A stretch of 64,000 nt of DNA, from NCBI RefSeq assembly GCF_011045215.1, contig NZ_CP049201.1; one strand, written 5' to 3'. The DNA comes from Escherichia coli. Lineage in GTDB: Bacteria; Pseudomonadota; Gammaproteobacteria; Enterobacterales; Enterobacteriaceae. The notes below the pieces were generated by a model, which had not been told where the DNA came from, ran no database searches, and saw only the letters and a list, made by a program, of their open reading frames with translations. Of this stretch, positions 27,059 to 48,781 are shown in pieces; within the stretch, counting starts at the first letter, position 1, and each line of letters begins with the position of its first letter. A program made the translations under genes and the position numbers.

Positions 27059-28339
27059 TTAATTTTTCATTGCTTCGTTATGGGGCATGGTTGGGGCAAA
27101 CTCGCTTAACTGTGTATTTAACAAAGCTACCTGTGCATTATTGTTTTCAGACATCCATTTTCCGTATACCTGAAATACCATTTGCGCATCTGCATGGCCC
27201 ATCTGGTTTGCTATAAATGCCGGGTTAGCACCAGCTGTCAGCGACCAGCAGGCATAAGTATGTCTCGACTGATATGATTTTCGATGGCGGAGTCCGGCAC
27301 GTTTTATCGCTGCGTCCCACATCTGCCTTATTGAGTCAACGGTAAAATGGTCACCATAATTTTTTACTCTCGCTGACACTTCAGGTTGAAAAACAAAGGT
27401 GCATTTTTGTTTTTCTGTTCTGCCATACTCTCTGAGGTGAACATCAATGATATGCTCTTTGCTCAGTCTCGTTAATGTCATCTGACTCCGGAGAGCGTCG
27501 ATTGCTGGCTTAATAAGATGAATGACCCGATTGGTTCCCGCCTGTGTTTTTGGTACCGTGAAACGGTCTTTTGCTAAATTTCTCCTGATCATCATTGTTC
27601 CATTTTTCAGATCTATGTCCTCCCATCCAAGTGCACACAGCTCACCAGGGCGAACGCCAGTATAAACAGAAACACACCATAAATTTTTTGCTTGCTGATT
27701 TCTGCACGCATCGATAAGACGGATAAATTCTTCCCGCGAAAGAGGATCCGGAATGGTTCTTGATTCCTTTAATGGCGAGATCCCCTTAAACGGATTATCT
27801 GCCAGGTAACCGTTATCAACACCAAACTGGAACACGGCGTTAAGATTTGTCATGTAATTATTTACAGTTACAGCCGATCTCCCTGGTTGTGTAACAATAT
27901 AGTTACTTTTGGGGGTCTGGTATCCAGTCAGTAGCTCTTTACGAACCTCCAGTAATTTTTCTTTATTAATCGATGAGGCAAGATTTTTTTCACCGATTAT
28001 GCTCAGGATATTTTTGATGACGGCACGGTATGTGTTGAGTGATGTTTTGGCGACTTCAGTTTCTTTCAGTGCCAGAAATTTTTCAGCCAGTTCTTTTATG
28101 GTTAAATCTTGTCGGGCCTCACCAAATTTTTCCAGATTGCGTGAGGAGGGAAACTGTTTTGCATAGTCGAAAACACCAGTTTTTATTGCGTAACAAACAG
28201 AGGAGCGTAGTTCACCTGCAACGCGCCTGTTTTTTGCTGTGTCAGGAACCCCCAGATTTTCCCTGACTCTTACGCCTTTATAAACAAACCAGATACGTAA
28301 TTTCCCTCCATGGTTTTCCACGCCTGTCGGATATTTCAT
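27059..28339 (-). CDS. int: phage integrase, tyrosine recombinase
   Basis: C-terminal catalytic region with R..HxxR..Y arrangement (RHTYACWSL...HADAQMVFQVYGKW); first gene inside the insertion. Confidence 0.9.
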   Translation of the reverse strand: MKYPTGVENHGGKLRIWFVYKGVRVRENLGVPDTAKNRRVAGELRSSVCYAIKTGVFDYAKQFPSSRNLEKFGEARQDLTIKELAEKFLALKETEVAKTSLNTYRAVIKNILSIIGEKNLASSINKEKLLEVRKELLTGYQTPKSNYIVTQPGRSAVTVNNYMTNLNAVFQFGVDNGYLADNPFKGISPLKESRTIPDPLSREEFIRLIDACRNQQAKNLWCVSVYTGVRPGELCALGWEDIDLKNGTMMIRRNLAKDRFTVPKTQAGTNRVIHLIKPAIDALRSQMTLTRLSKEHIIDVHLREYGRTEKQKCTFVFQPEVSARVKNYGDHFTVDSIRQMWDAAIKRAGLRHRKSYQSRHTYACWSLTAGANPAFIANQMGHADAQMVFQVYGKWMSENNNAQVALLNTQLSEFAPTMPHNEAMKN

Positions 28340-28373
28340 TTCAACTTCTCTCATTAGTTAGTGTGGCTTTTAG

Positions 28374-28697: not shown

Positions 28698-31169
28698 TTA
28701 AGAATCAGCCTGACTCGGGATCAGTTTTTGCCAGATAACTGAAACGTATTTTGCCTGGTAACGGGCGTCATCAAGTGCATTATGGCGCTCACCTTCGAAT
28801 GGAATAGCCGTTCTGGGATCGAAGTCTATGGCTTTCCCCAGCTCAACGATTGTGCGTACATCGCGATCGTTGTAGTAACGCCACGGGCAGGGGATCCCCT
28901 GCCGTTCGTATGAACGGCGCAAAATCGTGTTGTCGAAGTTGGCTCCATTTCCCCAGACCTGAACAAAAAATTCACCGGAGTTTTCGTCGATAAATTCCCG
29001 CAATTGTAACAGTGCATCATCTAACGGGATTTCATCGGTCATAATGGCAGATTGCGCTTCGCGTGATTGCTTAAGCCACCATTTAATGGTGTCCCGATCA
29101 ATGACTCCGCCAGCAGTTTCCAGATCGATAGTCTTACTAAATTCCGGTCCCATATCTCCGGTTTGCGGATCGAAAAATATTGCACCTATTGAGATGATCG
29201 GGGCATCAGGATTTTTTCCCATGGTTTCAAGGTCGATCATTAGATGGTCACACGTCCTGCTGGTGGATGTGATTTCGTGATGACCGTTCACCTTAATTGA
29301 GTGATCTGCCGTCTCGCCAGTTTCATTATCGCTATTGTGATGCTGATTGCCGCCAGTGTTCTCCTTGTGTGGATGTTCAGCGCCTTCCATTTCCTCCGGA
29401 TCATCTTCCTGAACTTCAACCTGATACTCTTCATCGAATGTTTCTTGGTATGTTGCGTCGCCCATCACCGCGCCACAATCAGGGCAGTTGCCGCCGCCGG
29501 TCTGACCGCAGGCGGTGCAGACTTTTTCCACTTCCTGTTGCGCCACTGGTTCAGGCTGTTTCGTTTCTGGCTCGTTTTGTAACGCATTTGGGCTGTTTTG
29601 TTCCGCTTTTTGGTAGTTCCGTTCCGATTCATGCTGGTTCTGGTTCACAGAATCGCGGGTCTGGATCCCCTTAACCCATTTCGGATCATTCGGGTCACTA
29701 ATCCCTTCAACAAATTCACCACGTGATGCAGCAAGCAACTTATCGGCGTCAGGCTGGCTGATATTGGCTGCCTGCATAATTTTGTTTACTTCGTCAGCGG
29801 TAACTTTTATCGGCTCTGGTTGTTCTGAATCTTCAGCGGTATCTACATTTTGCGGTAAGCCCGTGTATGTGCCATTTTTTCGGGCAAAATATTCTTCTTT
29901 TGTGATTTCAGTGGCGCCAGCAGCCAGTGCCTTATCCAGACCAGAAAGTTTGTTTGCGCGACCGTATTTTTCTCCGTCCTTATCTGCGAAGAGGAAATAG
30001 AACGGCCCCTCACGCTCTACAGATGGTTCAGCTTCCGGCGCGGTTTCATTTTTTGGGATATCAGATACCTCAGTTTCCACTGCATCAGTTTGTGTTTCTG
30101 ATGACTGGAGAACATCAACAGTGCCCAGGTCTGTTTCTTCATTCTCAAACACGCCCTTTGTCGTCAGGTATTCGCAGATATATTTGTTCAGTGCTACGGG
30201 ATCTTTGTGAATGTCGATCGGACGCTCACGGACAAGGCCAAAAATAGTTTGGCGGTCGTAGCGAAGGGCATCAGGCTGTTTGCGCATTGATGCCGAGATA
30301 CGCTTCCAGTCTTCGCGGTCGTTGTCGATAACTTCTTTTTTTGCCCAGCGATGGATGCTGCCGTCAATGTTTCCGGCATCCACATCACCAGGCCAGAGAG
30401 CGTAGGCCAGTTCGTCATCCAGTGTTTTCCATGTCTGCTTGTATTCGCGATGAATGGCAGCAATGACCGGGCTGATTTTTCCTGTTGAATTTTCAGTGTA
30501 CTGTTGATTGGCTCTGGCGCGGGCGAGATCAACAACAGACGTGTATTTTCCGGTTTCCTTGCGTTCACCTTCGCGACGTTTTTTCCAGATGCGCATCTCT
30601 GTCTGAATTTCGGGCCATTTAGCACCAGGAATACATTTATGCTTAACCCACCCAATGGCGTGCAACTTAAGCTCCGGATACATGGCGTTAACTTCTGGCA
30701 TTTTCATCAACGCTTCAACGATATGTCCGTCGAATGTTGCCATGTCTTCCTGCAACAATTCCTGTGTGCTAATAACCATATCAACGGTGATGTTTTCACA
30801 TGTGTCGAACTTAACCATGACAGCGTTCTGTACTTCAGGGGCCAGCTTGTCAAAAGTGACGTTCATCGGATCGGATTCAGTCTCAACCGGGACAAAAGAA
30901 GCAGACTCCTCATCCCAGCGGTTTTCCTGCATATATTCAGCATCCCATGAATCGAGGGCAGGGCGGGGTATGCCAGGTTTATCCTCGCAGATAATAAATT
31001 TATAAGCGCAGTCCTGAGCAGCCGGATAATGTTCCAGGAACTGCCAGTGAAATTTTGCTCGAGCACGGCGTTCGTCGCCAGCTTCAATGGCTGTGGCTAC
31101 AGCCACCGCGCCTTCTCCCCTTGTTGCCAGTTCGTCAGGAATAGCGGCGCAAATAAAGACTTTACTCAT
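28698..31169 (-). CDS. large phage exonuclease with C-terminal DnaQ/DEDDh-like 3'-5' exonuclease domain
   Basis: 823 aa; C-terminal motifs DLETMG, GNGANFD and HNALDDA consistent with DEDDh; long acidic low-complexity central region. Confidence 0.75.
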   Translation of the reverse strand: MSKVFICAAIPDELATRGEGAVAVATAIEAGDERRARAKFHWQFLEHYPAAQDCAYKFIICEDKPGIPRPALDSWDAEYMQENRWDEESASFVPVETESDPMNVTFDKLAPEVQNAVMVKFDTCENITVDMVISTQELLQEDMATFDGHIVEALMKMPEVNAMYPELKLHAIGWVKHKCIPGAKWPEIQTEMRIWKKRREGERKETGKYTSVVDLARARANQQYTENSTGKISPVIAAIHREYKQTWKTLDDELAYALWPGDVDAGNIDGSIHRWAKKEVIDNDREDWKRISASMRKQPDALRYDRQTIFGLVRERPIDIHKDPVALNKYICEYLTTKGVFENEETDLGTVDVLQSSETQTDAVETEVSDIPKNETAPEAEPSVEREGPFYFLFADKDGEKYGRANKLSGLDKALAAGATEITKEEYFARKNGTYTGLPQNVDTAEDSEQPEPIKVTADEVNKIMQAANISQPDADKLLAASRGEFVEGISDPNDPKWVKGIQTRDSVNQNQHESERNYQKAEQNSPNALQNEPETKQPEPVAQQEVEKVCTACGQTGGGNCPDCGAVMGDATYQETFDEEYQVEVQEDDPEEMEGAEHPHKENTGGNQHHNSDNETGETADHSIKVNGHHEITSTSRTCDHLMIDLETMGKNPDAPIISIGAIFFDPQTGDMGPEFSKTIDLETAGGVIDRDTIKWWLKQSREAQSAIMTDEIPLDDALLQLREFIDENSGEFFVQVWGNGANFDNTILRRSYERQGIPCPWRYYNDRDVRTIVELGKAIDFDPRTAIPFEGERHNALDDARYQAKYVSVIWQKLIPSQADS

Positions 31170-31807: not shown

Positions 31808-31865
31808 TAAAAACGGCGGCAGAGCAGTCACGGAGTAAAACTGATACCGCCAAACGTCACCAGAA
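31808..31865 (-). ncRNA. dicF: DicF small regulatory RNA
   Basis: minus-strand sequence UUUCUGGUGACGUUUGGCGGUAUCAGUUUUACUCCGUGACUGCUCUGCCGCC followed by a U-run matches DicF (53 nt plus terminator tail). Confidence 0.88.
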
Positions 31866-33742: not shown

Positions 33743-34247
33743 ACAGGCTCGTGAGGCTCTGGATGCCTGGATATGTCGACCAGGAATGACACAGGAGCAG
33801 GCGACGATATTAATCACTGAAGCATTCTGGGCTTTGAAAGAGCGCCCGAACATCGATGTTCAGCGTGTCACATATGAAGGTGGCGCGGTTGATCAGCGAG
33901 CGCTTAGCGTTAATCGAGTGAAGATATTCGAACGCTGGAAGGCTATCGACACCAGGGATAAGCGTGAAAAGTTCACAGCGCTAGTGCCTGCAATTATGGA
34001 GGCTATCCGGATTAGTGATTTCAGGTTGTATCGTGAGATCAGTGATGGAAAAAGTATTACGTACATGATCGCCGGGTTAAATAAAGAATATGGCGATGTG
34101 GTGGAATCTGGACTGCTTTTTGCAGATCCTGCCGTTGTAGATCGTGAAACTGACGAACTTATAGAAAAAGCAATTGCTTTCAAGCTTGCGTATCGACAGC
34201 AATACCAACAAAAAGCTGGATGGAATTATGAGTCTTCTTTTTGCTGA
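33726..34247 (+). CDS. hypothetical early-region protein (YdaT-like position)
   Basis: 173-aa ORF overlapping the dicC stop; no recognisable catalytic motif. Confidence 0.65.
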   Translation: MKITPEQAREALDAWICRPGMTQEQATILITEAFWALKERPNIDVQRVTYEGGAVDQRALSVNRVKIFERWKAIDTRDKREKFTALVPAIMEAIRISDFRLYREISDGKSITYMIAGLNKEYGDVVESGLLFADPAVVDRETDELIEKAIAFKLAYRQQYQQKAGWNYESSFC

Positions 34248-35193
34248 ACGCCCACTGGTTATAAACACGCAGCTGGCAATGAAAATCGGCTTAAACGAAG
34301 CCATTGTTTTGCAACAACTGCACTACTGGTTGAGAGATACCAACTCCGGTATGGAATGTGATGGTGTTCGCTGGATTTATAACACAACGGAACAATGGCT
34401 GGAACAGTTCCCATTCTGGTCAGAGTCAACGTTAAAACGCGCGTTTGCAAGTCTGAAAACGCTGGGGCTTTTGCGTTGTGAAAAGCTCAATAAATCAAAG
34501 CGCGATATGACCAATTTCTACACGATCAACTATGGGAGCGAGCTTTTAGATGGTGGCAAATTGAACGAATCCATCGGTTCAAAATGCGCCGCTCCATCAG
34601 GTCAAAATGACACGATGGAAGAGGTCAAAATGAAACGCTCCATTGGTTCAAAACGACCCAATGTCATCGGGTCAAAATGGCCTGATGATCTTACAGAGAA
34701 TACAACAGAGATTACTACAGAGAATAAAAACACTTTTCGTCCGGAAGCTTCGCAACCGGACCCGCAGACGACTGAACAGGATTTTTTAACCCGGAACCCC
34801 GACGCGGTTGTGTTTAGTGTGAAAAAACGCCAGTGGGGTAGCAGGGAGGATTTGGCGTGTGCGCAGTGGATTTGGGGGCGGATCGTGAACCTTTACGAAC
34901 AGGCTGCCAGCGACGATGGAGAGATCATGCGACCAAAAGAGCCTAACTGGACAGCCTGGGCCAATGACGTGCGCACAATGCGGATGCTGGATGGCAGAAG
35001 CCACAGACAAATTTGCGAAATGTTTGGTCGGGTACAGCGGGATCCATTCTGGGTAAAAAACATCATGAGCCCGTCAAAACTCCGCGAAAAATGGGACGAA
35101 CTGGTCATCCGCCTGGGACGTTCACCTGTACAGCGTTGTGTGAATCATATTTCTGAACCGGATACAGAAATTCCGCCTGGTTTCAGAGGATAA
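34228..35193 (+). CDS. replication initiator, lambda O-like
   Basis: 321 aa with N-terminal DNA-binding-type region; gene contains five regularly spaced iterons, as in lambda O/ori. Confidence 0.75.
   Translation: MSLLFAERPLVINTQLAMKIGLNEAIVLQQLHYWLRDTNSGMECDGVRWIYNTTEQWLEQFPFWSESTLKRAFASLKTLGLLRCEKLNKSKRDMTNFYTINYGSELLDGGKLNESIGSKCAAPSGQNDTMEEVKMKRSIGSKRPNVIGSKWPDDLTENTTEITTENKNTFRPEASQPDPQTTEQDFLTRNPDAVVFSVKKRQWGSREDLACAQWIWGRIVNLYEQAASDDGEIMRPKEPNWTAWANDVRTMRMLDGRSHRQICEMFGRVQRDPFWVKNIMSPSKLREKWDELVIRLGRSPVQRCVNHISEPDTEIPPGFRG
34575..34680. repeat. phage replication origin iterons (5 direct repeats of GGTCAAAATG-like motif, about 23-bp period)
   Basis: copies at about 34576, 34600, 34623, 34645 and 34669 inside the O-like gene, producing repeated IGSK peptide motifs. 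Confidence 0.75.
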
Positions 35194-35831: not shown

Positions 35832-36470
35832 ATGAAGATGAAAAACATGTCTGAAGTGTTGACCCAAGAAAAGCTTATTTTTGTTGCCCAGAGACTAAAG
35901 GCCCTCGCGCAGTCAGGCCTGACCTATTCAAAAGACGTCTTTGACAAGGAACGCTATGAAGCCTTGCGTGAAATTGCCGCTGGACTGCTGAGTTCGCAGT
36001 TTGATATTAGCCGCAATGATTTGTTTCATGTATCGGAAACGGGTTACGCGACGCCCAAAACAGATGTGCGTGCGTTTATCCTGCGTAATAATCGTATTCT
36101 GATGGTGAAAGAGGCTGCAGATGGATTATGGAGTCTTCCTGGCGGATGGGCAGATGTTGGAGATACACCTTCTGAAGCTGTGCGTCGAGAGGTCGAAGAA
36201 GAAACCGGATTAAAAGTCAGAGTGACTAAACTATTGGGAGTTTGGGATCGTAATCTTCACGGCCATCCGCCTTTACCCTGGCATGTTTACAAGCTGATTT
36301 TTCTCTGTGAAGAAGTAGGTGGCAGCCTGTCAATCAGCCATGAGTCACTCGATGCTGATTTTTTTGATGTCAACGACCTGCCTGAATTGTCGCTTTCAAG
36401 AATTGTGCCTGAGCAGATTGCTGTCAGCCTGAGAGTAGCGAAAGGTGATGAAAAAACATGGTTTGATTAA
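35832..36470 (+). CDS. Nudix hydrolase with N-terminal extension domain
   Basis: 212 aa; Nudix-box core GGWADVGDTPSEAVRREVEEETGL. Confidence 0.85.
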   Translation: MKMKNMSEVLTQEKLIFVAQRLKALAQSGLTYSKDVFDKERYEALREIAAGLLSSQFDISRNDLFHVSETGYATPKTDVRAFILRNNRILMVKEAADGLWSLPGGWADVGDTPSEAVRREVEEETGLKVRVTKLLGVWDRNLHGHPPLPWHVYKLIFLCEEVGGSLSISHESLDADFFDVNDLPELSLSRIVPEQIAVSLRVAKGDEKTWFD

Positions 36471-36493: not shown

Positions 36494-37138
36494 ATGGCAA
36501 TGATATTCAACGCTAAGGGTTTTTTATTCGATATGGACGGTACGCTGGTTGATTCAACAGCCGTAGTGGAAAACGTCTGGAGAGATTTTTGTGCAGAATA
36601 CGGTCTTGATTCTCAGGCTGTGATTGCTTACGCACACGGGCGGCAAACGATTGATACACTAACGCATTTTATTGGTGCAGGTGAGAAAACCAATAAAATC
36701 GCGGCCTCACTCGAAGAGGTTGAAATCAACACGACAGAAGGCGTTACTGAAGTAAAAGGGGCCGCTGCACTCTTATCAAAACTGCCACCGGATAGCTGGG
36801 CACTTGTCACTTCTGCAGGCAGAATGCTTGCCGAAAACAGGATGAAAGCGGCTAATCTCCCCTTACCCAGAGTAATGGTGTGTGCAGAAGATGTAATGAC
36901 GGGAAAACCAAGTCCCGAGGGTTACATCAAAGCAGCTTTGGCTTTGGGCCTTGAGCCTGGTGAATGCGTGGTATTTGAGGATGCATCTGCGGGTATAAAA
37001 GCAGGGCTGGCAAGTGGAGCTTCGGTAATAGCTGTTCAGCCTGACGCTCTGGGATCATCTGAAGCCCATGCCGTCAGCGAACTGTCTGACATTATGGTCA
37101 AGATTTCCGGAGAACGTTTCAATATCATCTGTGGTTAA
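36494..37138 (+). CDS. HAD-superfamily phosphatase (beta-phosphoglucomutase-like subfamily)
   Basis: 214 aa; motif I FDMDGTLVDS, motif III lysine region and downstream acidic motif (EDASAG); 24 bp after the Nudix gene. Confidence 0.85.
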   Translation: MAMIFNAKGFLFDMDGTLVDSTAVVENVWRDFCAEYGLDSQAVIAYAHGRQTIDTLTHFIGAGEKTNKIAASLEEVEINTTEGVTEVKGAAALLSKLPPDSWALVTSAGRMLAENRMKAANLPLPRVMVCAEDVMTGKPSPEGYIKAALALGLEPGECVVFEDASAGIKAGLASGASVIAVQPDALGSSEAHAVSELSDIMVKISGERFNIICG

Positions 37139-37386
37139 TCACGTTACACAATACGCATCAATGGACGCTGAGTAGTTCGCGAGTTTTAAACTTCCAACGT
37201 CCGCTTTTCGCTCAAAGCGGACTAGAAGGTTAGCTTGTATCGGACTTTGCGTATTAAATGACTAGTGGTTGAGCCCCATTTCCACAGAAAAAATCAGAGA
37301 AACTATACCCAATAGTTGTATTGAATCACTGACGAGACAGCCTCATATTCATCAGGACTGGTGTACGTCCAATACAGGAGGTTGTG

Positions 37387-37476
37387 GTGCTGGTTCTCAA
37401 ATGTGCGCTGGCTATTACGGCTGTAATGGCGATTTATTGTCTTGCTATTGTTCTTATGGATCGCCTTTCTGACTGA
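37387..37476 (+). CDS. candidate small hydrophobic membrane peptide (about 29 aa), possible type I toxin
   Basis: consensus AGGAGG at 37376-37381, 5 nt before GTG; encodes (M)LVLKCALAITAVMAIYCLAIVLMDRLSD, one TM helix with charged tail; a different frame of the same region gives the 67-aa Cys/Gly-rich ORF in the track. Confidence 0.3.
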   Translation: MLVLKCALAITAVMAIYCLAIVLMDRLSD

Positions 37477-37687
37477 TTTCATATTGGCGAGGTAACGGTA
37501 GTTAAGTAGAATGGCTGCGGGTGCTTGAGGCTATCTGCCTCGGGCATGAACACCAACGGCAGATAGAGAAAAGCCCCAGTTAACATTACGCGTCCTGCAA
37601 GACGCTTAACATTAATCTGAGGCCAATTTCATGCTAGACACATGTAGGTTAGCCTCTTACGTGCCGAAAGGCAAGGAGAAGCAGGCT

Positions 37688-37843
37688 ATGAAGCAGCAAA
37701 AGGCGATGTTAATCGCCCTGATCGTCATCTGTTTAACCGTCATAGTGACGGCACTGGTAACGAGGAAAGACCTCTGCGAGGTACGAATCCGAACCGGCCA
37801 GACGGAGGTCGCTGTCTTCACAGCTTACGAACCTGAGGAGTAA
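37688..37843 (+). CDS. hok: Hok/Gef-family type I toxin
   Basis: 51 aa MKQQKAMLIALIVICLTVIVTALVTRKDLCEVRIRTGQTEVAVFTAYEPEE, typical Hok; in-frame upstream ATG at 37631 could act as a mok-like leader. Confidence 0.88.
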   Translation: MKQQKAMLIALIVICLTVIVTALVTRKDLCEVRIRTGQTEVAVFTAYEPEE

Positions 37844-37911
37844 GAGACCCGGCGAGGGATAAATCCCTCGCCACCTCTGATGTGGCAGGCATCCTCAACG
37901 CACCCGCACTT

Positions 37912-37940
37912 AACCCGCTTCGGCGGGTTTTTGTTTTTAT
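37912..37940 (+). terminator. rho-independent terminator of hok transcript
   Basis: stem cccgc/gcggg with ttcg loop followed by tttttgttttt. Confidence 0.75.
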
Positions 37941-38059
37941 TTTCAACGCGTTTGAAGTTCTGGACGGTGCCGGAATAGAATCAAAAATACTTAAGTAGCG
38001 CGCAGGGATAAGAGGGATGGTCCCTTAAAGGGGAGAGCTAATTATCCGGAAGGATTCTG

Positions 38060-38311
38060 ATGATGAACATCGAAGAACTGCGTAAAATTTTTTGTGAAGA
38101 TGGCCTCTATGCTGTGTGCGTTGAAAATGGAAACATTGTTAGTCATTACCGCATTCTGTGTTTGCGAAAGAATGGGGCTGCGTTAATTAATTTTATGGAT
38201 GCTCGGGTCACGGACGGATTTATCTTGCGCGAAGGTGAGTTTGTCACTTCATTACAGGCACTGAAAGAGATCGGAATAAAAGCAGGCTTTTCAGCTTTTG
38301 CAGAAGAATAA
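38060..38311 (+). CDS. small phage protein in the Rem position (83 aa)
   Basis: 83-aa ORF between hok and the DUF968 gene, same order as hokD-rem-ydfU in Qin. Confidence 0.6.
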   Translation: MMNIEELRKIFCEDGLYAVCVENGNIVSHYRILCLRKNGAALINFMDARVTDGFILREGEFVTSLQALKEIGIKAGFSAFAEE

Positions 38312-38657: not shown

Positions 38658-39707
38658 GTGCGGGTATTACTTCGACCTGTTCTGGTACCGGAACTCGGGC
38701 TGGTGGTCGTTAAGCCGGGCCGTGAATCCATGCCGGTATTCCACAATACCCGGGTACTGGTGGAGCCGGAACCGAAAAGCATGCGTAATCTGCCGTCCGG
38801 GATCGTTCCTGCCGTTCGCCAGCCGCTGGTGGAAGACAAAACATTGCTGCCGTTTTTCAGTAATGCACGGGTAATTCGTGCTGCTGGTGGTGCTGGTGCA
38901 TTGTCTGACTGGCTGTTGCGCCATATTAAATCCTGCCAGTGGCCACACGGCGATTATCATCACAGCGAAACCGTTATTCACCGTTATGGTACCGGCGCAA
39001 TGGTGTTGTGCTGGCACTGCGACAACCAGCTGCGTGACCAGACATCCGAATCACTCGAGCAACTTGCTCATCAAAACCTGTCAGCATGGATGATTGACGT
39101 CATCGGTCACGCAATAAGCGGTACGCAGGAGCGTGAATTATCTCTGGCTGAATTATCCTGGTGGGCGGTCCGCAATCAGGTGGCGGACGCGCTACCGGAA
39201 GCGGTATTACGTCGTTCGCTGGGGTTGCGTGCGGAAAAAATCCGCTCCATGTACCGTGAAAGCGACATCGTACCGGGAGAGCAGACCGCCACCAGCATAC
39301 TGAAACAGCGCACAAAAAATCTTGCGCCGCTGCCTCACGCCCACCAGCAACAGAACCCACCACAGGAAAAGACGGTGGTCAGCATTGCCGTTGATCCTGA
39401 GTCTCCGGAATCTTTCATGAAACGACCTAAACGTCGCCGCTGGGTTAATGAAAAGTACACGCGCTGGGTTAAGACACAGCCGTGTGCATGTTGTGGAAAG
39501 CCCGCTGATGATCCCCACCACCTGATAGGCCACGGTCAGGGGGGAATGGGTACAAAAGCGCATGACCTCTTTGTGTTGCCTTTGTGCAGAAAGCATCACG
39601 ACGAGCTGCATGCGGATACCGTGGCATTTGAAGAGAAGTATGGCTCCCAGCTGGAGCTGATATTTCGTTTTATCGATCGTGCGCTGGCAATTGGCGTGCT
39701 GGCCTGA
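38658..39707 (+). CDS. ydfU: YdfU-like DUF968 protein with C-terminal HNH-like zinc motif
   Basis: 349 aa; C-terminal CACCGK...HHLIGHGQGG...CRKHHDELH; immediately upstream of Q as in Qin. Confidence 0.8.
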   Translation: MRVLLRPVLVPELGLVVVKPGRESMPVFHNTRVLVEPEPKSMRNLPSGIVPAVRQPLVEDKTLLPFFSNARVIRAAGGAGALSDWLLRHIKSCQWPHGDYHHSETVIHRYGTGAMVLCWHCDNQLRDQTSESLEQLAHQNLSAWMIDVIGHAISGTQERELSLAELSWWAVRNQVADALPEAVLRRSLGLRAEKIRSMYRESDIVPGEQTATSILKQRTKNLAPLPHAHQQQNPPQEKTVVSIAVDPESPESFMKRPKRRRWVNEKYTRWVKTQPCACCGKPADDPHHLIGHGQGGMGTKAHDLFVLPLCRKHHDELHADTVAFEEKYGSQLELIFRFIDRALAIGVLA

Positions 39708-39724
39708 TTTTGTGGAGAAAGTTG

Positions 39725-40069
39725 ATGCGTGATATGTATGAAGTTTTAGACCGCTGGGGAGCGTGGGCTGCAGCAGATAACAGTGGTGTGGACTGGCAGC
39801 CGATAGCAGCAGGCTTTAAGGGGCTTTTACCTCATGGTAAAAAAATACGCCTTCAGTGTGATGATGATGAAGGCATCATGATAGACGGCTGTGTTGCCCG
39901 CCTGTGTAAGTATAAACCAGACGAATATGAGCTGATCATTGCTCACTTCGTTATAGGTATTTCACTGCGTTCTATTGCGAAGAGACGCAGATGCTCAGAT
40001 GGAACAATCCGGAAGCAATTGCAGACTGCGTTAGGTTTCATTAATGGGGTTATGTACATGCTCAAGTAA
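39725..40069 (+). CDS. Q: late-gene antiterminator Q (933W/82-type)
   Basis: 114 aa from ATG with GGAG RBS (MRDMYEVLDRWGAWAA...), N-terminus resembles small Q antiterminators. Confidence 0.8.
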   Translation: MRDMYEVLDRWGAWAAADNSGVDWQPIAAGFKGLLPHGKKIRLQCDDDEGIMIDGCVARLCKYKPDEYELIIAHFVIGISLRSIAKRRRCSDGTIRKQLQTALGFINGVMYMLK

Positions 40070-41288
40070 TATTTGGCATTAATTTAAATAAAATACCGAT
40101 GATGCCTATGAATGTAGGCATCCATGCTAGTGATAATAAACTGTCAAGCACCTTATGACAAAAATCCTCATTGTCATTTAATTTTTTAATAGCCTCTTCT
40201 AAGCTCTCTTTAAGATCGCTGGTGTCATCCTTTATTCTATATCTTAATTGTCCAAAAAGTATTTCTTTAGAGTGTGAAATACGAGCAAGTTGTTTTTTTT
40301 GTGACACAATCATTGCAGATGTTATTATTGCTGTGATAATCAATCCAATTAAAGCAATAATCCAATCAGCTTTTGTTGTTAATTTGAAAATAGCAATTGA
40401 ACCAGCTAGTGAAATAGGTATTGCAAGAGCTTTGTTAGAAATTTCTGAAATTATTTTTGACAGTTTTTCTGAGTAATCGAGTTCAGCATCAACAACTTCT
40501 TTCCTTGCTTTATGAAAAGAAAATGCCGATATATAAGCAGCTAAGTTGTTCGTATAAAGTTCGCATATGAAATCCCACTTGTTAATTAACTCGACAAAGG
40601 AATTTCCATTTTTATTAACATACTCAATAACTGTGTTTCTGAAAGTGTTAATCTTTTCAATGTGATGGGCATCAGTAGTAGCTTCACTACTTACTAATGT
40701 TTTAACTAACTGAGTATTTACTGTTTTATCATTAAAAATTTCTTCTGTAATATTTGTTTCAATTACAGCAGAAGAAGATTTAGACTCTGAGTTTAAAATA
40801 AAGACTAAACGATAAAATGTACCTTTGCTATCTTTTTTTATATCATGGAAATGAGCAAGCATGGAAAGAGCATTGATTAGCTCACAAATGTCCTCAATTT
40901 TTTGGATATAAGAAGGTTTTGGTGTTTCTAATGAATAGAAATCATCCTCTATAATATAGAAATACTCTGGCATTATGCCTTTCTTGAGCGTGTTTATTTT
41001 TACAAACTCGTTTTTATTTTTATAAAAACGATTCGCACTTCCTTGTGAAATTTTAAACGAGTATGTAAGAAAATTTCCCTTTTCAGGAAAGTCTTCATAA
41101 TCATAAATTAAATGACCATCCACCTCTATTTCGTCAGCTGTACCAGCTTGAAAAGTAGGGTTCAAAATTCTTTTGAACAATGATTTTACGTCTGCATTAT
41201 AAGCTATACGCGCAGAAAACTTAGCCCCGTCAAAATGAGGATAGCTTGATAATCTATACAGATTAACTATTATACTAAAATCATTCAT
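40062..41288 (-). CDS. candidate defence effector: protein with soluble N-terminal domain and C-terminal transmembrane helices
   Basis: 408 aa, AT-rich; hydrophobic segments ALAIPISLAGSIAIFKL, WIIALIGLIITAIITSAMIVS and WMPTFIGIIGILFKL; start overlaps upstream gene stop (ATGA). Confidence 0.75.
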   Translation of the reverse strand: MNDFSIIVNLYRLSSYPHFDGAKFSARIAYNADVKSLFKRILNPTFQAGTADEIEVDGHLIYDYEDFPEKGNFLTYSFKISQGSANRFYKNKNEFVKINTLKKGIMPEYFYIIEDDFYSLETPKPSYIQKIEDICELINALSMLAHFHDIKKDSKGTFYRLVFILNSESKSSSAVIETNITEEIFNDKTVNTQLVKTLVSSEATTDAHHIEKINTFRNTVIEYVNKNGNSFVELINKWDFICELYTNNLAAYISAFSFHKARKEVVDAELDYSEKLSKIISEISNKALAIPISLAGSIAIFKLTTKADWIIALIGLIITAIITSAMIVSQKKQLARISHSKEILFGQLRYRIKDDTSDLKESLEEAIKKLNDNEDFCHKVLDSLLSLAWMPTFIGIIGILFKLMPNIT

Positions 41289-42451
41289 TCTTTATCTTCT
41301 TCATTACTCGGGTTATCAGTTTCTTTCAACGCTCTTCTTATCTTAGTTAATGCTTCAACAGGCAAATTATTAAATGTTAGGCTTTGGTTTTCGTCATCAT
41401 AATATATTTTAGCATCAGTTGTGACACCGAGTAAATCCTTGTCGAAGTGAAAGCTCAATGATGGGGTTTTATATATCACATTGCGGATTTTATCTAAGGA
41501 GTTTTTATTGATTACGAACTCTGATGGGATTCTGACTTCCTCACTATTGAGGTGTTTCATTAATTTATCAACAAGTTCTGTTTTTTCTTCCTCTTTTAAA
41601 TAGGACATATGGCCTGAAGCAAGCGATTCGATATCAGAAAGCCTTGCAGAGTGCTCGTTGTCAAATTGCTTTTCTAAGTATTTGATAACATCATTTCTAA
41701 ATGACTCTGCTTGATTTTTTAAAAGAGGTTCTTTCTTAAAGAAACGCCTTATTTCATCTGGTAACTTACGGGTTGCGCCTGCTGAAGCAATCCCCTTGTC
41801 ACATCCTAATGCTGCTATAAAATATGCTGCCGCTGACTGTCCCGTAGTTTTGCTTATAAAGCTTAGATAACTTAAGTCTGTTTTTTTTAAATCATCTGCT
41901 TTTTGGTATTCTTCATAATATCTGAAATTTATTTTTGCTGCTTGGTTAATATTACCAAGTTCTAAGTGAATCATTTCCTCTGGCTCTAAATTTTCACTAA
42001 TAGTTACGCCATTAGTTTTTTTGATCATTGTAACCAATAGATAACGGAAACCAGATAAAATATAATCAGTAAAAACAACATATCCTCCAGAAGCCCAAAT
42101 CTGCTCTTGAGCAGATTTATACATTTGTTTCATAACTTCCTTCGATAATTCAATGAAATCATTTGAAACAGATTGTTGAACTAAAGAGTATTTATGAAAT
42201 AGTTCTGGTATAGGGCCTTGTTTTGTTTTATTTTTAATAAAAACACCATAATGCGCTGAGTTCCCTTTTGAACCATACAAATCAATAACACCGTCTACTA
42301 ATTTTTTTACTATATCATTTGTTTTATCTAGTTCTGTATCACGAAGATTGTATGGTTTGGAGTGATCGAAGTCTTTATTAGATTCTTTTAAGAGCTCATG
42401 AACGATTACGTGGCGTATGCTTGCTTTGCTCATTTTTTTGGTCAATTCCAT
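41285..42451 (-). CDS. YejK/NdpA-like (NA37 family) nucleoid-associated-type protein
   Basis: 388 aa, AT-rich; blocks resembling E. coli YejK (IRHVIVHELLK; SGGYVVFTDY..FRYLLVTMIK...ISENL; YLSFISKTTG..AAYFIAALG); start may be the internal ATG at 42433. Confidence 0.75.
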   Translation of the reverse strand: MELTKKMSKASIRHVIVHELLKESNKDFDHSKPYNLRDTELDKTNDIVKKLVDGVIDLYGSKGNSAHYGVFIKNKTKQGPIPELFHKYSLVQQSVSNDFIELSKEVMKQMYKSAQEQIWASGGYVVFTDYILSGFRYLLVTMIKKTNGVTISENLEPEEMIHLELGNINQAAKINFRYYEEYQKADDLKKTDLSYLSFISKTTGQSAAAYFIAALGCDKGIASAGATRKLPDEIRRFFKKEPLLKNQAESFRNDVIKYLEKQFDNEHSARLSDIESLASGHMSYLKEEEKTELVDKLMKHLNSEEVRIPSEFVINKNSLDKIRNVIYKTPSLSFHFDKDLLGVTTDAKIYYDDENQSLTFNNLPVEALTKIRRALKETDNPSNEEDKE

Positions 42452-43050: not shown

Positions 43051-44103
43051 ATGAAAAATACTGTAAAAATAAACAGTGTTGATTTAATCAACGCTGATTG
43101 CCTGCATTTTATTCAGTCCTTGCCTGATGATTCCATTGATCTGATTGTTACCGATCCGCCGTACTTCAAAGTGAAGCCCAACGGCTGGGACAATCAGTGG
43201 AAAGGGGACGAAGATTACCTGAAGTGGCTGGACTACTGTCTGGCCCAGTTCTGGCGGGTACTGAAACCAGCCGGAAGCCTTTACCTGTTCTGTGGACATC
43301 GCCTGGCATCTGATATTGAGATCATGATGCGTGAACGTTTCAACGTGCTTAACCATATCATCTGGGCGAAGCCGTCCGGACGTTGGAATGGGTGTAATAA
43401 AGAAAGTCTGCGCGCATATTTTCCTGCCACAGAGCGCGTTCTGTTTGCTGAACATTACCAGGGGCCATATCGCGGCAAAAGTGACGGCTATGCGGCAAAA
43501 GAAAGGGAACTCAAACAGCACATAATGGCACCGCTGATATCGTATTTCAGGGATGCTCGTGCCGAACTGGGTATAACGGCAAAACAAATTGCCGAAGCCA
43601 CAGGTAAGAAAAATATGGTTTCCCACTGGTTTGGTGCCAGTCAGTGGCAGTTGCCGAATGAGGCTGACTATCGGAAGTTACAGGCACTGTTTTCCCGTAT
43701 AGCGGCAGAGAAGTTTCAGGAACAACAACTGGAACAACCACACCACCAGCTGGTGGCATCTTATGATTCACTGAATCGCAAATATTCTGAATTGCTGGAT
43801 GAGTTTAAATCTCTCCGGCGCTATTTCTCCGTATCAGTCTCCGTGCCTTATACCGATGTCTGGATGCATAAACCCGTTCAGTTCTACCCGGGTAAACATC
43901 CGTGTGAGAAACCTGCGGATATGCTCCGGCAAATAATCAATGCCAGTAGTCGACCTGGTGATCTGGTTGCTGATTTTTTTATGGGATCCGGTTCCACAAT
44001 AAAAGCAGCAATGGCGCTGGGGCGTCGGGCCTTAGGTGTTGAGCTTGAGTCAGAGCGGTTTAACCAGACAGTGAAAGAGATATACGAGCTGGTGGGGAAA
44101 TAA
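43051..44103 (+). CDS. DNA N6-adenine/N4-cytosine methyltransferase
   Basis: 350 aa with DPPY catalytic motif near N-terminus and AdoMet motif FFMGSGST near C-terminus (beta-class arrangement). Confidence 0.88.
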   Translation: MKNTVKINSVDLINADCLHFIQSLPDDSIDLIVTDPPYFKVKPNGWDNQWKGDEDYLKWLDYCLAQFWRVLKPAGSLYLFCGHRLASDIEIMMRERFNVLNHIIWAKPSGRWNGCNKESLRAYFPATERVLFAEHYQGPYRGKSDGYAAKERELKQHIMAPLISYFRDARAELGITAKQIAEATGKKNMVSHWFGASQWQLPNEADYRKLQALFSRIAAEKFQEQQLEQPHHQLVASYDSLNRKYSELLDEFKSLRRYFSVSVSVPYTDVWMHKPVQFYPGKHPCEKPADMLRQIINASSRPGDLVADFFMGSGSTIKAAMALGRRALGVELESERFNQTVKEIYELVGK

Positions 44104-44169: not shown

Positions 44170-44385
44170 ATGAAATCCATGGATAAGTTAACAACGGGTG
44201 TCGCCTATGGCACCTCAGCAGGTAGTGCCGGGTACTGGTTTTTACAGTTGCTCGATAAAGTCACGCCCTCACAGTGGGCGGCAATAGGTGTGCTGGGTAG
44301 TCTGGTATTTGGCTTGCTGACGTATCTGACAAACCTTTATTTCAAGATTAAAGAAGATAAGCGTAAGGCTGCGAGAGGTGAATAA
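44170..44385 (+). CDS. phage holin
   Basis: 71-aa two-TM protein with charged C-terminus, directly upstream of lysozyme. Confidence 0.85.
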
Positions 44386-44882
44386 TGTCGCCATCATTAC
44401 GCAAGGCTGTTGCTGCTGCTATTGGTGGTGGGGCTGTTGCCATAGCGTCTGTGCTCATCACTGGTCCGAGTGGTGACGATGGCCTGGAAGGTGTCAGCTA
44501 CATACCATACAAAGATATCGTTGGCGTATGGACTGTATGTCACGGACACACCGGAAAAGACATCATGCTAGGTAAAACGTATACCGAAGCAGAATGCAAA
44601 GCCCTCCTGAATAAAGACCTTGCCACGGTCGCCAGACAAATTAACCCGTACATCAAAGTCGATATACCGGAAACAACGCGCGGCGCTCTTTACTCGTTCG
44701 TCTACAACGTGGGTGCTGGCAATTTCAGAACATCGACGCTTCTTCGCAAAATAAACCAGGGCGATATCAAAGGCGCATGTGACCAGCTACGTCGCTGGAC
44801 ATACGCTGGCGGTAAGCAATGGAAAGGCCTGATGACTCGTCGTGAGATTGAGCGTGAAGTCTGTTTGTGGGGGCAACAATGA
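44385..44882 (+). CDS. phage lysozyme (T4 lysozyme/GH24 family) with N-terminal signal-anchor
   Basis: 165 aa; hydrophobic N-terminus ([18 protein letters not shown]) then lysozyme core with catalytic E-D-T spacing; ATG overlaps holin stop. Confidence 0.88.
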
Positions 44883-46184: not shown

Positions 46185-46679
46185 ATGGATCGAGAGTTAA
46201 AAAATCTGACGCTGAATATCAGTCAACTGGCGGCACTGTCAGGTGTACATCGCCAGACTGCTGCGGCAAGGCTGCAAAATCTACCCGTTGCAGGGGGGCA
46301 TGAAAGCAACCTCAAGCTTTATCGGGTGGTTGATATTGTGTCGGCATTTCTGGCATTGCCACCGCCGGTTGCAGAAGGCGAAATGGACGCGCATGAGCGC
46401 AAAGCCTGGTATCAGTCTGAACGTGAGCGTCTTAAGTTCGAACAGGAAACGGCACAACTCATTCCGGCCAGTGATGTCAGACGGGAGTTTGCCATCTGGG
46501 CAAAAGCGGTCGTGCAGGTGCTGGAGACATTACCGGATATTCTGGAACGTGACTGCGGTCTGCAGCCTGCCGCTGTGAGCCGTGTTCAGTCCATTATTGA
46601 TGATCTGCGCGATCAGATAGCCCTGCGGGTGACTGAAGCAGGTGCGGATGATGAGGAGGAATTACAGCAGGAGGAGTAA
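46185..46679 (+). CDS. terminase small subunit
   Basis: 164 aa with N-terminal HTH-like segment (LNISQLAALSGVHRQTAAARL) and acidic C-terminus; directly precedes large terminase. Confidence 0.8.
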   Translation: MDRELKNLTLNISQLAALSGVHRQTAAARLQNLPVAGGHESNLKLYRVVDIVSAFLALPPPVAEGEMDAHERKAWYQSERERLKFEQETAQLIPASDVRREFAIWAKAVVQVLETLPDILERDCGLQPAAVSRVQSIIDDLRDQIALRVTEAGADDEEELQQEE

Positions 46680-48781
46680 TGCTGAATCAGGAAACCGCAA
46701 AGGCAGCACGAACCGATTCAGGTTATATCCTTCGCGCACCGAGACGAATGCGGGTTGCTGATGCCGTTGCTCAGTATATGCGGGTGCCCATGGGGGCAGG
46801 GAACTCAGTCCCGTGGGATCCGCTGGTGGCACCGTATGTTATTGAGCCGATGAACTGCCTGGCCTCGCGTGAATACGACGCAGTGATATTTGTTGGCCCG
46901 GCACGAACCGGCAAGACTATCGGCCTGATTGACGGCTGGGTGATTTACAACGTGATTTGCGATCCTGCTGATATGCTGATCATTCAGATGACGGAGGAAA
47001 AAGCCCGCGAACACTCCAAAAAACGACTCGCCAGAACGTTTCGCGTCAGCCCGGAAGTGGTCAGTCGCCTGAGTCCGAACAAAAATGACAACAACGTTTA
47101 TGACAGAACATTCCTTGCTGGTAACTACCTGAAAATCGGCTGGCCGTCAGTCAATATCATGTCCTCATCAGATTATAAATGCGTCGCGCTGACGGATTAT
47201 GACCGTTTTCCGGAAGATATTGATGGCGAGGGGGATGCTTTCTCTCTTGCCTCAAAACGTACCACCACATTTATGTCCAGCGGTATGACGCTGGTGGAGA
47301 GTTCCCCCGGCAGGGATGTGAAGGATGTGAAATGGCGACGGACTTCACCGCATGAGGCTCCACCAACCACGGGGATCCTGTCGCTCTATAACCGTGGTGA
47401 TCGCCGTCGCTGGTACTGGCCCTGTCCACACTGTGGTGAGTATTTTCAGCCCTGCGGCGATGTGGTTGCTGGTTTCCGTGATATTGCCGATCCCGTGCTG
47501 GCAAGTGAGGCGGCTTATATTCAGTGTCCTTCCTGTTCAGGACGGATTATGCCTGAACAAAAACGTGAGCTGAACGGACGTGGGGTCTGGTTGCGGGATG
47601 GTGAATCCATCAATGCGGATGGCAGTCGTTATGGTGATCCCCGACGCTCACGTATTGCGTCATTCTGGATGGAGGGTCCGGCAGCTGCTTACCAGACACT
47701 CTCGCAACTCGTTTACAAACTGCTTACTGCAGAACAGGAATACGAGACAACCGGAAGTGAAGAAACACTCAAGACGGTTATCAATACCGACTGGGGATTA
47801 CCTTATCTTCCCCGCGCCAGCATGGAGCAACGAAAAAGTGAACTGCTTGAGCAGCGGGCAGAGCCAGTTCCTTCCCGCAGTGTGCCGGATGGCGTTAATT
47901 TCCTTGTGGCGACAGTGGATGTGCAGGCGGGACGTCATCGCCGTTTTGTGGTTCAGGTAACGGGCTATGGCAGCCGTGGCGAACGCTGGATTATTGATCG
48001 TTACAACATCACGCAGTCATTGCGCGGTGACAGCGACGGGGAGAGCCAGCGAATTGATCCGGCCAGCTATCCGGAAGACTGGGATGTCCTGCTGACGGAT
48101 GTTTTTCATAAAAGCTGGCCGCTGGCCTCCGATCCTTCTCAACAAATGCGACTGATGGCAATGGCGGTGGACTCCGGCGGTGAAGACGGGGTCACTGATA
48201 ATGCCTATAAATTCTGGCGTCGTTGCCGTCGTGATGGCCTTGGTAAACGTATTTACCTGTTTAAGGGCGACAGCATCCGGCGCGCAAAACTGATCACCCG
48301 TACATTCCCTGATAACACCGGACGAACGGGCCGACGGGCGCAGGCCGCAGGTGATGTGCCGCTCTGGCTTCTTCAGACGGATGCACTGAAAGACCGGGTG
48401 AATAACGCGTTATGGCGTGACTCGCCAGGTCCCGGCTATGTGCATTTCCCTGACTGGCTGGGGAGCTGGTTTTACGACGAACTGACGTATGAAGAGCGGA
48501 GCAGTGACGGGAAATGGAGTAAGCCGGGTCGCGGTGCCAACGAAGCTTTTGACCTGATGGTGTATGCCGAGGCTCTGGTCATTCTGCATGGATACGAAAA
48601 GATCCGCTGGCCGGATGCACCGGAGTGGGCGAGCCGGGAAACCTGGCTGGAGTGTGTCCCGGACAGTACCGAACCGTCATCCTCACCGGAACCGGTATCC
48701 ACGCCTGTTAAAAAACAAAAACGGAAGAAAACAGTAACTGACGATGTTAACCCCTGGCTGACTTCCGGAGGATGGTTATGA
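46679..48781 (+). CDS. terminase large subunit (lambda gpA family)
   Basis: 700 aa; Walker A-like VGPARTGKT; ATG overlaps small-subunit stop. Confidence 0.9.
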   Translation: MLNQETAKAARTDSGYILRAPRRMRVADAVAQYMRVPMGAGNSVPWDPLVAPYVIEPMNCLASREYDAVIFVGPARTGKTIGLIDGWVIYNVICDPADMLIIQMTEEKAREHSKKRLARTFRVSPEVVSRLSPNKNDNNVYDRTFLAGNYLKIGWPSVNIMSSSDYKCVALTDYDRFPEDIDGEGDAFSLASKRTTTFMSSGMTLVESSPGRDVKDVKWRRTSPHEAPPTTGILSLYNRGDRRRWYWPCPHCGEYFQPCGDVVAGFRDIADPVLASEAAYIQCPSCSGRIMPEQKRELNGRGVWLRDGESINADGSRYGDPRRSRIASFWMEGPAAAYQTLSQLVYKLLTAEQEYETTGSEETLKTVINTDWGLPYLPRASMEQRKSELLEQRAEPVPSRSVPDGVNFLVATVDVQAGRHRRFVVQVTGYGSRGERWIIDRYNITQSLRGDSDGESQRIDPASYPEDWDVLLTDVFHKSWPLASDPSQQMRLMAMAVDSGGEDGVTDNAYKFWRRCRRDGLGKRIYLFKGDSIRRAKLITRTFPDNTGRTGRRAQAAGDVPLWLLQTDALKDRVNNALWRDSPGPGYVHFPDWLGSWFYDELTYEERSSDGKWSKPGRGANEAFDLMVYAEALVILHGYEKIRWPDAPEWASRETWLECVPDSTEPSSSPEPVSTPVKKQKRKKTVTDDVNPWLTSGGWL

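Follow-up and report, generated by a model that had tools for sequence, protein, structure and literature searches.

We identify positions 37484-37938 of the window (the 64,000-nt stretch of the Escherichia coli contig NZ_CP049201.1, assembly GCF_011045215.1, that was analysed here), with high confidence, as an intact type I toxin-antitoxin locus of the hok/mok/sok kind (hokD/hokW subtype) that resides in a complete-looking lambdoid prophage, between its replication genes and the gene for the Q antiterminator. This is an ordinary and already known kind of RNA-controlled suicide module, which consists of the Hok toxin, the Mok leader and the Sok antisense RNA; the module is textbook material, is found in most E. 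coli genomes, and a close homolog has been characterized experimentally. As delineated here, from the hok promoter to the end of the terminator T-run, the locus is larger than the segment in the original prediction, the start of which (37560) omits 41 nt at the 5' end of the hok mRNA, with the tac element and the metastable hairpin, as well as the hok promoter. Apart from these boundaries and the exact location of the antisense RNA, the original prediction is confirmed in its observations and supported in its interpretation.

The alignment to covariance models that had been suggested as a check yielded a match of Rfam RF01794 to 37519-37693 over the full length of the model (positions 1-157), with 115.3 bits (gathering score 59, E=1.6e-25), and this match proves that the leader belongs to the family. 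A chance ORF is ruled out by the Pfam and Rfam E-values. A 541-bp query (37450-37990) found matches in 4721 of the 5426 complete E. coli genomes, with a median of 2 and a maximum of 9 copies per genome; copies that contain the leader were present in 3727 of the 5426 when at least 80% coverage of the query, a criterion that requires the leader, was demanded. The elements of the locus are as follows.

37484-37512, plus strand: hok promoter (-35 TTGGCG at 37484-37489, 17-nt spacer, -10 TAGAAT at 37507-37512; promoter scan, 9 of 12 matches)
37519 to about 37936, plus strand: hok mRNA of about 418 nt, with an inferred 5' end and the 3' end within the terminator T-run
37519-37530, plus strand: tac element GGGUGCUUGAGG, predicted by folding to pair with fbi as long as the mRNA is full-length, with ucb after processing and with 37538-37547 in the metastable 5' hairpin
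37571-37577, plus strand: ucb (anti-SD) AAGCCCC, whose partner in the MFE structures is the mok SD when the mRNA is closed and tac when it is open
37619-37622, plus strand: mok Shine-Dalgarno sequence GAGG, seen by inspection 8 nt ahead of the mok ATG, pairing with ucb (closed) or dcb (open)
37626-37649, plus strand: sokT target stem-loop of the processed mRNA (stem 37626-37634/37641-37649, loop about 37635-37640; MFE structure of the mRNA ending at 37885)
37631-37843, plus strand: mok ORF of 70 aa (ORF list), in frame with hok and hence an N-terminally extended Hok, like K-12 mokC
37653-37656, plus strand: dcb CCUC, predicted by folding to pair with the mok SD in the open conformation
37673-37678, plus strand: hok Shine-Dalgarno sequence AAGGAG, read from the sequence and kept in K-12 hokD, hokC and the R1-type loci
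37688-37843, plus strand: hok coding sequence for the 51-aa HokD toxin (Pfam PF01848, E=3e-23; annotated as hokD in E. coli RefSeq genomes)
37826-37829, plus strand: UACG at the Tyr47 codon, a candidate TadA A-to-I editing site (A37827, Tyr to Cys)
37851-37872, plus strand: 3' UTR hairpin with a 9-bp GC-rich stem, GGCGAGGGA-UAAA-UCCCUCGCC (folding)
37893-37905, plus strand: fbi element CCUCAACGCACCC, complementary to tac and paired with 37519-37530 in the MFE structure
37912-37938, plus strand: hok intrinsic terminator (stem 37912-37929, loop UUCG, T-run; terminator scan)
37646-37674, minus strand: sok promoter (-35 TTGCCT at 37674-37669, 17-nt spacer, -10 TAACCT at 37651-37646), located by identity to the sokW promoter
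37639 to about 37563, minus strand: Sok antisense RNA of about 71-77 nt, with a single-stranded 5' tail (37639-37625), a long hairpin (37624-37574) and a U-rich 3' end CUUUUCUCUAU at about 37563-37569

The toxin gene had been recognized as hok-type from the sequence, and the profile search bears this out: the 51-aa peptide (MKQQKAMLIALIVICLTVIVTALVTRKDLCEVRIRTGQTEVAVFTAYEPEE) matches the Hok/Gef family PF01848 with 81.6 bits against a cut-off of 22, and the NCBIfam Hok models match with significant E-values at scores below their curated cut-offs. The PGAP label of this coding sequence in E. coli RefSeq genomes is hokD, and the HokD peptide is toxic when overexpressed (bioRxiv 10.1101/2025.08.07.668861). 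The in-frame ATG 19 codons upstream that had been described as mok-like is the codon at 37631 that opens the 70-aa mok ORF, and it is invariant in the 66 homologs. In K-12, mokC and hokC have a common stop codon, and mokW is annotated at the position equivalent to mok of the window. By analogy with R1 and Sp5, hok translation is probably coupled to mok translation. Three mok arrangements occur among hokD-type alleles, namely the in-frame 70-aa ORF, a 19-codon ORF whose stop codon and the hok start codon overlap as ATGA, and an ORF of 68 aa that uses the third frame, a variety that fits the established view that it is the translation of mok that matters rather than the sequence of the Mok peptide. 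The UACG motif at Tyr47 is invariant in the 66 sequences. The K-12 hokD mRNA undergoes low-level A-to-I editing (6%) that changes Tyr to Cys (PMC12214031), and editing as an additional regulatory layer is plausible, by analogy, for the locus in the window.

The predicted transcription start of the hok mRNA (37519) is located 7 nt downstream of the -10 element; position 1 of the RF01794 model falls at 37519, and this start aligns with the +1 of the R1-type mRNA (GGCGCUUGAGG). The full-length mRNA is predicted to be highly structured (MFE -172.2 kcal/mol, z=-6.9). When RNAs with different 3' ends were folded in silico, three distinct states were obtained. In the RNA that ends at 37936 (full length), tac pairs with fbi and the mok SD pairs with ucb (37574-37577); in the RNA that ends at 37892, the 5' end forms a metastable hairpin with 37538-37547; and in the RNA that ends at 37885, tac pairs with ucb (37571-37577), the mok SD pairs with dcb (37653-37656), and the sokT loop, which is complementary to the 5' tail of Sok, is exposed. 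Thus, folding reproduces a predicted processing-dependent switch from a closed form (tac/fbi) to an open form (tac/ucb and mok SD/dcb), which is the folding pathway given for R1 hok, as summarized in PMC9841398. The two hairpins noted previously downstream of the coding sequence correspond to 37851-37872 and to the rho-independent terminator, with its stem at 37912-37929 and T-run to 37938. The former shows a compensatory pair at alignment columns 342/355 and, judging from the R1 data in PMC9841398, probably shields the processed mRNA at its 3' end.

All of these sequence elements, their conservation and the predicted alternative pairings are present at the locus. In particular, the fold-back elements to which the original prediction pointed as a touchstone, tac and fbi, are both there and are kept in 66 unique homologous mRNAs. 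The tac element is nearly invariant across this set, and the 11 tac/fbi pairs are conserved in the RNAalifold consensus of the 66 sequences, but these pairs never vary and hence carry no covariation evidence. The ucb pairs (alignment columns 56-62/100-106) are conserved as well, with compensatory changes at 62/100. Altogether, double changes were observed in only 5 of the 111 predicted pairs among the 66 unique full-length mRNAs, and covariation support is limited because the sequences are 95% identical. In the sokT region, all 15 alleles tested keep the SD:dcb stem and the upper stem, that is, a two-tier hairpin, despite differing stem sequences; shuffling of the variable insert of each allele revealed a modest excess of hairpin stability (z from -0.9 to -2.6).

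The antisense gene was expected on the minus strand by analogy with other hok/sok loci, and it can now be placed there by homology with sokC and sokW. Through alignment, the curated K-12 sokC ncRNA (NC_000913, 16952-17010) maps to the window from 37639 (5' end, minus strand) to 37563; the GenBank record AP000422 (phage VT2-Sakai), in which mokW, hokW and a 71-nt sokW misc_RNA are annotated, places sokW at 37639-37569; and window positions 37646-37674 are 100% identical to the sokW promoter. The putative location of sok is therefore supported by three independent lines of sequence comparison that agree with each other, and it differs from the range of 37600-37690 given previously for the antisense transcript, the predicted RNA extending from 37639 to about 37563 and its promoter occupying 37646-37674. 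The predicted Sok RNA (GUCUAGCAUGAAAUUGGCCUCAGAUUAAUGUUAAGCGUCUUGCAGGACGCGUAAUGUUAACUGGGGCUUUUCUCUAU) has a fold z-score of -4.3, starts with G in all 11 alleles examined, and is longer than SokC (59 nt) owing to an apical GCGUC...GACGC extension that is common to SokW. A generic sigma-70 consensus scan found the hok promoter and called no minus-strand promoter; the sok promoter was missed because TAACCT matches the consensus at only 3 of 6 positions. For sokW, replacement of the -10 element (TAGGTTA>CCGGCTC, primer YO-421) abolished the antitoxin activity of SokW (Takada et al., PMC8621323). Furthermore, SokW was detected by Northern blot, the -10 mutant was rescued by sokW in trans, and partial dependence on RNase III and Hfq was reported (PMC8621323).

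These assignments bear on annotation. The RF01794 model, although named 'sok', matches the strand opposite to both the annotated sokC of K-12 and the annotated sokW of VT2-Sakai and is therefore a model of the hok-sense leader rather than of the Sok strand, so that Rfam-driven annotation from this model would put sok on the wrong strand. The statement that sok is not annotated holds for the two RefSeq/PGAP records inspected, neither of which includes a sok RNA and for which exact coordinates can now be offered, but does not extend to AP000422 with its annotated homologous sokW. In the record of phage mEp460_ev081 (LR597641, 1439-1749), which is 99.4% identical to the window, the hok coding sequence is labelled 'MokW protein'. 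A hypothetical protein is also called in this record across the fbi and terminator sequences (window equivalent 37882-37998); the ORF in question is probably spurious.

Among loci that encode identical HokD, sequence variation is concentrated in a patch of about 20 nt (37625-37645) that comprises the Sok 5' tail, the sokT loop with the upper stem, and mok codons 2-5. Nucleotide diversity (pi) is 0.384 in this patch vs 0.016 at hok third-codon positions and 0.05-0.07 in other UTR segments, and column entropy peaks at the same positions. At least 20-21 patch alleles were found among 186 locus fetches, with allele counts inflated by some contigs that were fetched twice. The predicted 16-nt duplexes between tail and target have a mean energy of -25.3 kcal/mol for cognate combinations vs -8.7 kcal/mol for non-cognate ones. 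The SokW tail allele is also found linked to HokD coding sequences, which implies recombination.

It is possible, if on balance doubtful, that this patch is a specificity module kept diverse by selection. Should this be the case, the hok/sok loci of prophages would be divided among many Sok 'immunity types', and the Sok of one prophage would not neutralize the hok of another. There is no evidence that co-resident prophages avoid the same Sok allele: among 12 genomes with two or more loci, the alleles differ in 9 and are identical in 3, two of these three having three identical copies that are possibly assembly duplicates, and the random expectation of allele identity is about 0.12 per pair (a hand calculation from the allele counts). 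A recent Hok census left the Sok and Mok elements unanalyzed, and the patch represents a modest, mildly novel lead on antitoxin specificity among co-resident prophages.

The prophage that carries the locus includes the following genes.

27059-28354, minus strand: integrase
28698-31169, minus strand: RecE-like exonuclease
31814-31865, minus strand: DicF sRNA in the early-left region (Rfam RF00039, 72.5 bits)
from 33027: repressor/Cro module
34174-35193: replication gene O
35832-36470, plus strand: NUDIX hydrolase, cargo
36494-37138, plus strand: HAD hydrolase, cargo
37484-37938: hok locus
38060-38311: rem
38658-39707: ydfU (DUF968)
39710-40069: Q antiterminator
43051-44103: methyltransferase
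44385-44882: endolysin
46679-48781: terminase large subunit

The presence of DicF in the early-left region marks this prophage as Qin/Rac-like; no tRNA genes were found within the window. The slot between the replication genes and hok, here filled by the NUDIX and HAD genes, encodes a HEPN-domain protein in another strain, so that a variable 'moron' slot adjoins hok. The NUDIX protein shows a weak PADLOC match to PDC-S07 (E=6.6e-10). Immediately upstream of hok, 37384-37476 (plus strand) contains an ORF for a strongly hydrophobic peptide of 30 aa, with a GTG start, an AGGAGG SD and a stop codon 8 nt upstream of the hok -35 element. In 29 related loci the reading frame is likewise uninterrupted, and the distinct codon changes among them (7 synonymous, 9 non-synonymous) go with 6 protein variants that differ conservatively. 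Pfam, PHROG and NCBIfam gave no match for this ORF, and none of the inspected records annotates it; it may encode a genuine small membrane protein. A promoter-like site (37952-37981, plus strand, TTGAAG-18-TAGAAT) closely follows the hok terminator, about 80 nt ahead of rem, and may be the rem promoter. Directly after the Q antiterminator gene, two overlapping cargo genes are located on the minus strand (40062-41288 and 41285-42451). They score below the NCBIfam thresholds for the DS1 anti-phage pair, a two-gene system (DS1_2, 100.7 bits vs a cut-off of 315; DS1_1/YejK-like nucleoid-associated protein, 98-133 bits vs cut-offs of 330-341), match PHROG 5023 and 3767, and have no PADLOC match; this pair may be a divergent prophage-borne defence system.

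A mechanism for the locus can be proposed by homology with R1 hok/sok and Sp5 hokW-sokW. The hok promoter would produce a stable mRNA of about 418 nt, in which the 5' tac pairs with the 3' fbi and ucb hides the mok SD, so that this form would be neither translated nor bound by Sok. Slow trimming of the 3' end would remove fbi, whereupon tac would switch to ucb and the mok SD to dcb, and the sokT stem-loop would form. The short-lived Sok, made from the constitutive minus-strand promoter, would bind sokT via its 5' tail and block the translation of mok, and hence the coupled translation of hok, with RNase III cutting the duplex. Once Sok synthesis stops or Sok is depleted, be it through loss of the element, transcription arrest or SOS/prophage induction, the processed mRNA would be translated, and Hok would insert into the inner membrane and kill or lyse the cell. 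Transcription, mRNA processing, Sok instability and toxicity in this strain would accordingly be those of the homologs: the experimental data on Sok expression, RNase III cleavage of the duplex and killing by Hok come only from sokW (PMC8621323) and R1 (PMC9841398). For the chromosomal hokA, hokB and hokC, neither post-segregational killing nor activation by rifampicin is reportedly observed (summarized in bioRxiv 10.1101/2025.08.07.668861). Within the prophage, the candidate roles that we infer are addiction, that is, killing of cells that lose the prophage, or faster lysis on induction.

Several alternatives to a functional antisense-controlled locus have to be considered. The locus might be a hok gene without a working antisense partner, controlled only by the mRNA fold-back or by upstream transcription, as would be the case for K-12 hokD, which lacks sok, mok and tac, with relBE replacing the leader. 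Of the 81 loci with identical HokD (80 from IMG/VR and the window), 6 are truncated, 4 with the relE junction and 2 with another truncation, and no minus-strand promoter appears in the consensus scan. However, the window has the full leader, as do 75 of the 81 loci, its sok promoter does not differ in a single base from that of the functional sokW, and the 5' end of Sok agrees with two independent annotations, so that this explanation appears extremely improbable. A structurally intact but physiologically silent locus, namely a domesticated or inactive chromosomal hok copy that never kills for want of mRNA processing or activation, as reported for other chromosomal hok loci, is less far-fetched but still unlikely. 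All K-12 hok copies other than hokB have been suggested to be inactivated (PMC12214031), and plasmid hok/Sok gave no protection against T4 in a re-evaluation that calls phage defence by hok/Sok into question (PMC13047441). Against this stand the lack of any disrupted element in the window, the fact that tac, fbi, the SDs and the promoters are strongly conserved in the 66 unique sequences, which argues for selection, and the activity of the near-identical hokW-sokW, for which the toxin is made after MMC treatment and phage release is halved in a deletion mutant (PMC8621323).

The remaining alternative pertains to the role rather than the mechanism and is compatible with our best explanation, an intact, Sok-controlled hok/mok/sok locus. 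It is quite possible, if somewhat short of probable, that the main function is assistance with host lysis and phage release on induction, not addiction, with Sok being lost after SOS and Hok supplementing holin and endolysin. Such a role has been demonstrated directly for the 94%-identical Sp5 hokW-sokW, where MMC- and RecA-dependent loss of SokW, production of HokW and, in the deletion mutant, a two-fold drop in phage release were reported (PMC8621323). The prophage in the window, with its endolysin, terminase, integrase and Q, looks inducible, and hok is co-oriented with the early-right operon, such that read-through on induction could oppose sok transcription. However, the effect in Sp5 is only about two-fold, and hokW sits at a different position in Sp5.

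Comparison with known hok systems places the locus among its closest relatives and explains its relationship to the K-12 gene of the same name. The most similar characterized system is hokW-sokW (with mokW) of the Stx2 prophage Sp5/VT2-Sakai/933W of E. coli O157:H7, which shows about 94% nucleotide identity over window positions 37500-37915. The two share the sok promoter, the sok 5' end, the Sok apical extension, tac/fbi, and the mok and hok starts (equivalent to window 37631 and 37688), and both are located on lambdoid prophages. They differ in 4 of the 51 residues of the toxin (C-terminus ...VFVDYESEK in HokW vs ...VFTAYEPEE in the window), in the allele of the Sok 5' tail (GUCUAGCAUGAAAUUG in the window vs GUUCAGCAUGGAUUGA in SokW), in the terminator, and in the position within the prophage, which in the window is between the replication genes and Q.

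The hokD gene (relF) of the K-12 cryptic prophage Qin matches the hok coding sequence and hok SD of the window without mismatch, with a few substitutions in the 3' UTR, and has the same downstream neighbors (rem, ydfU and a Q-like gene). Upstream of the hok SD, K-12 contains the 3' end of relE and has neither the hok promoter, tac, ucb, mok nor sok. The relE junction corresponds to about window 37672, inside the sok -35 element, and because the K-12 sequence upstream of this point is replaced by relE, K-12 hokD is a copy that is missing its 5' part. The relBE-hokD arrangement is absent from the window, where the leader is native and the upstream gene encodes the HAD hydrolase, without relBE; the locus thus represents the hokD allele of K-12 in its untruncated form. 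The leader of K-12 hokC/mokC/sokC (gef) aligns throughout with that of the window, with mok in frame with hok and the same Rfam match, whereas the 59-nt SokC lacks the apical hairpin extension of about 18 nt present in Sok of the window, the sokC promoter has the -35 element TTGACC and a -10 element weaker than that of the window, and hokC is flanked by IS186.

The archetype of the family, R1 hok/mok/sok (parB), for which we used an R1-type sequence that is 100% identical over 433 nt to plasmid records, has the same order of elements (tac, ucb, mok SD, sokT, dcb, hok SD, fbi, terminator) but only about 50% nucleotide identity to the window. Conserved islands are located at tac, at both SDs (mok and hok) and at dcb; GCTTGAGGCT.TCTGCCTC, TAGCCTCTTAC and GCAAGGAGAAG are examples of such islands. 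Sok of R1 is 64 nt long. The mok gene of R1 is in the +1 frame relative to hok and starts 58 nt upstream, whereas that of the window is in frame and starts 57 nt upstream, as in mokC and mokW. Finally, R1 hok/sok is plasmid-borne and has a proven role in post-segregational killing, whereas the locus described here is carried by a prophage.
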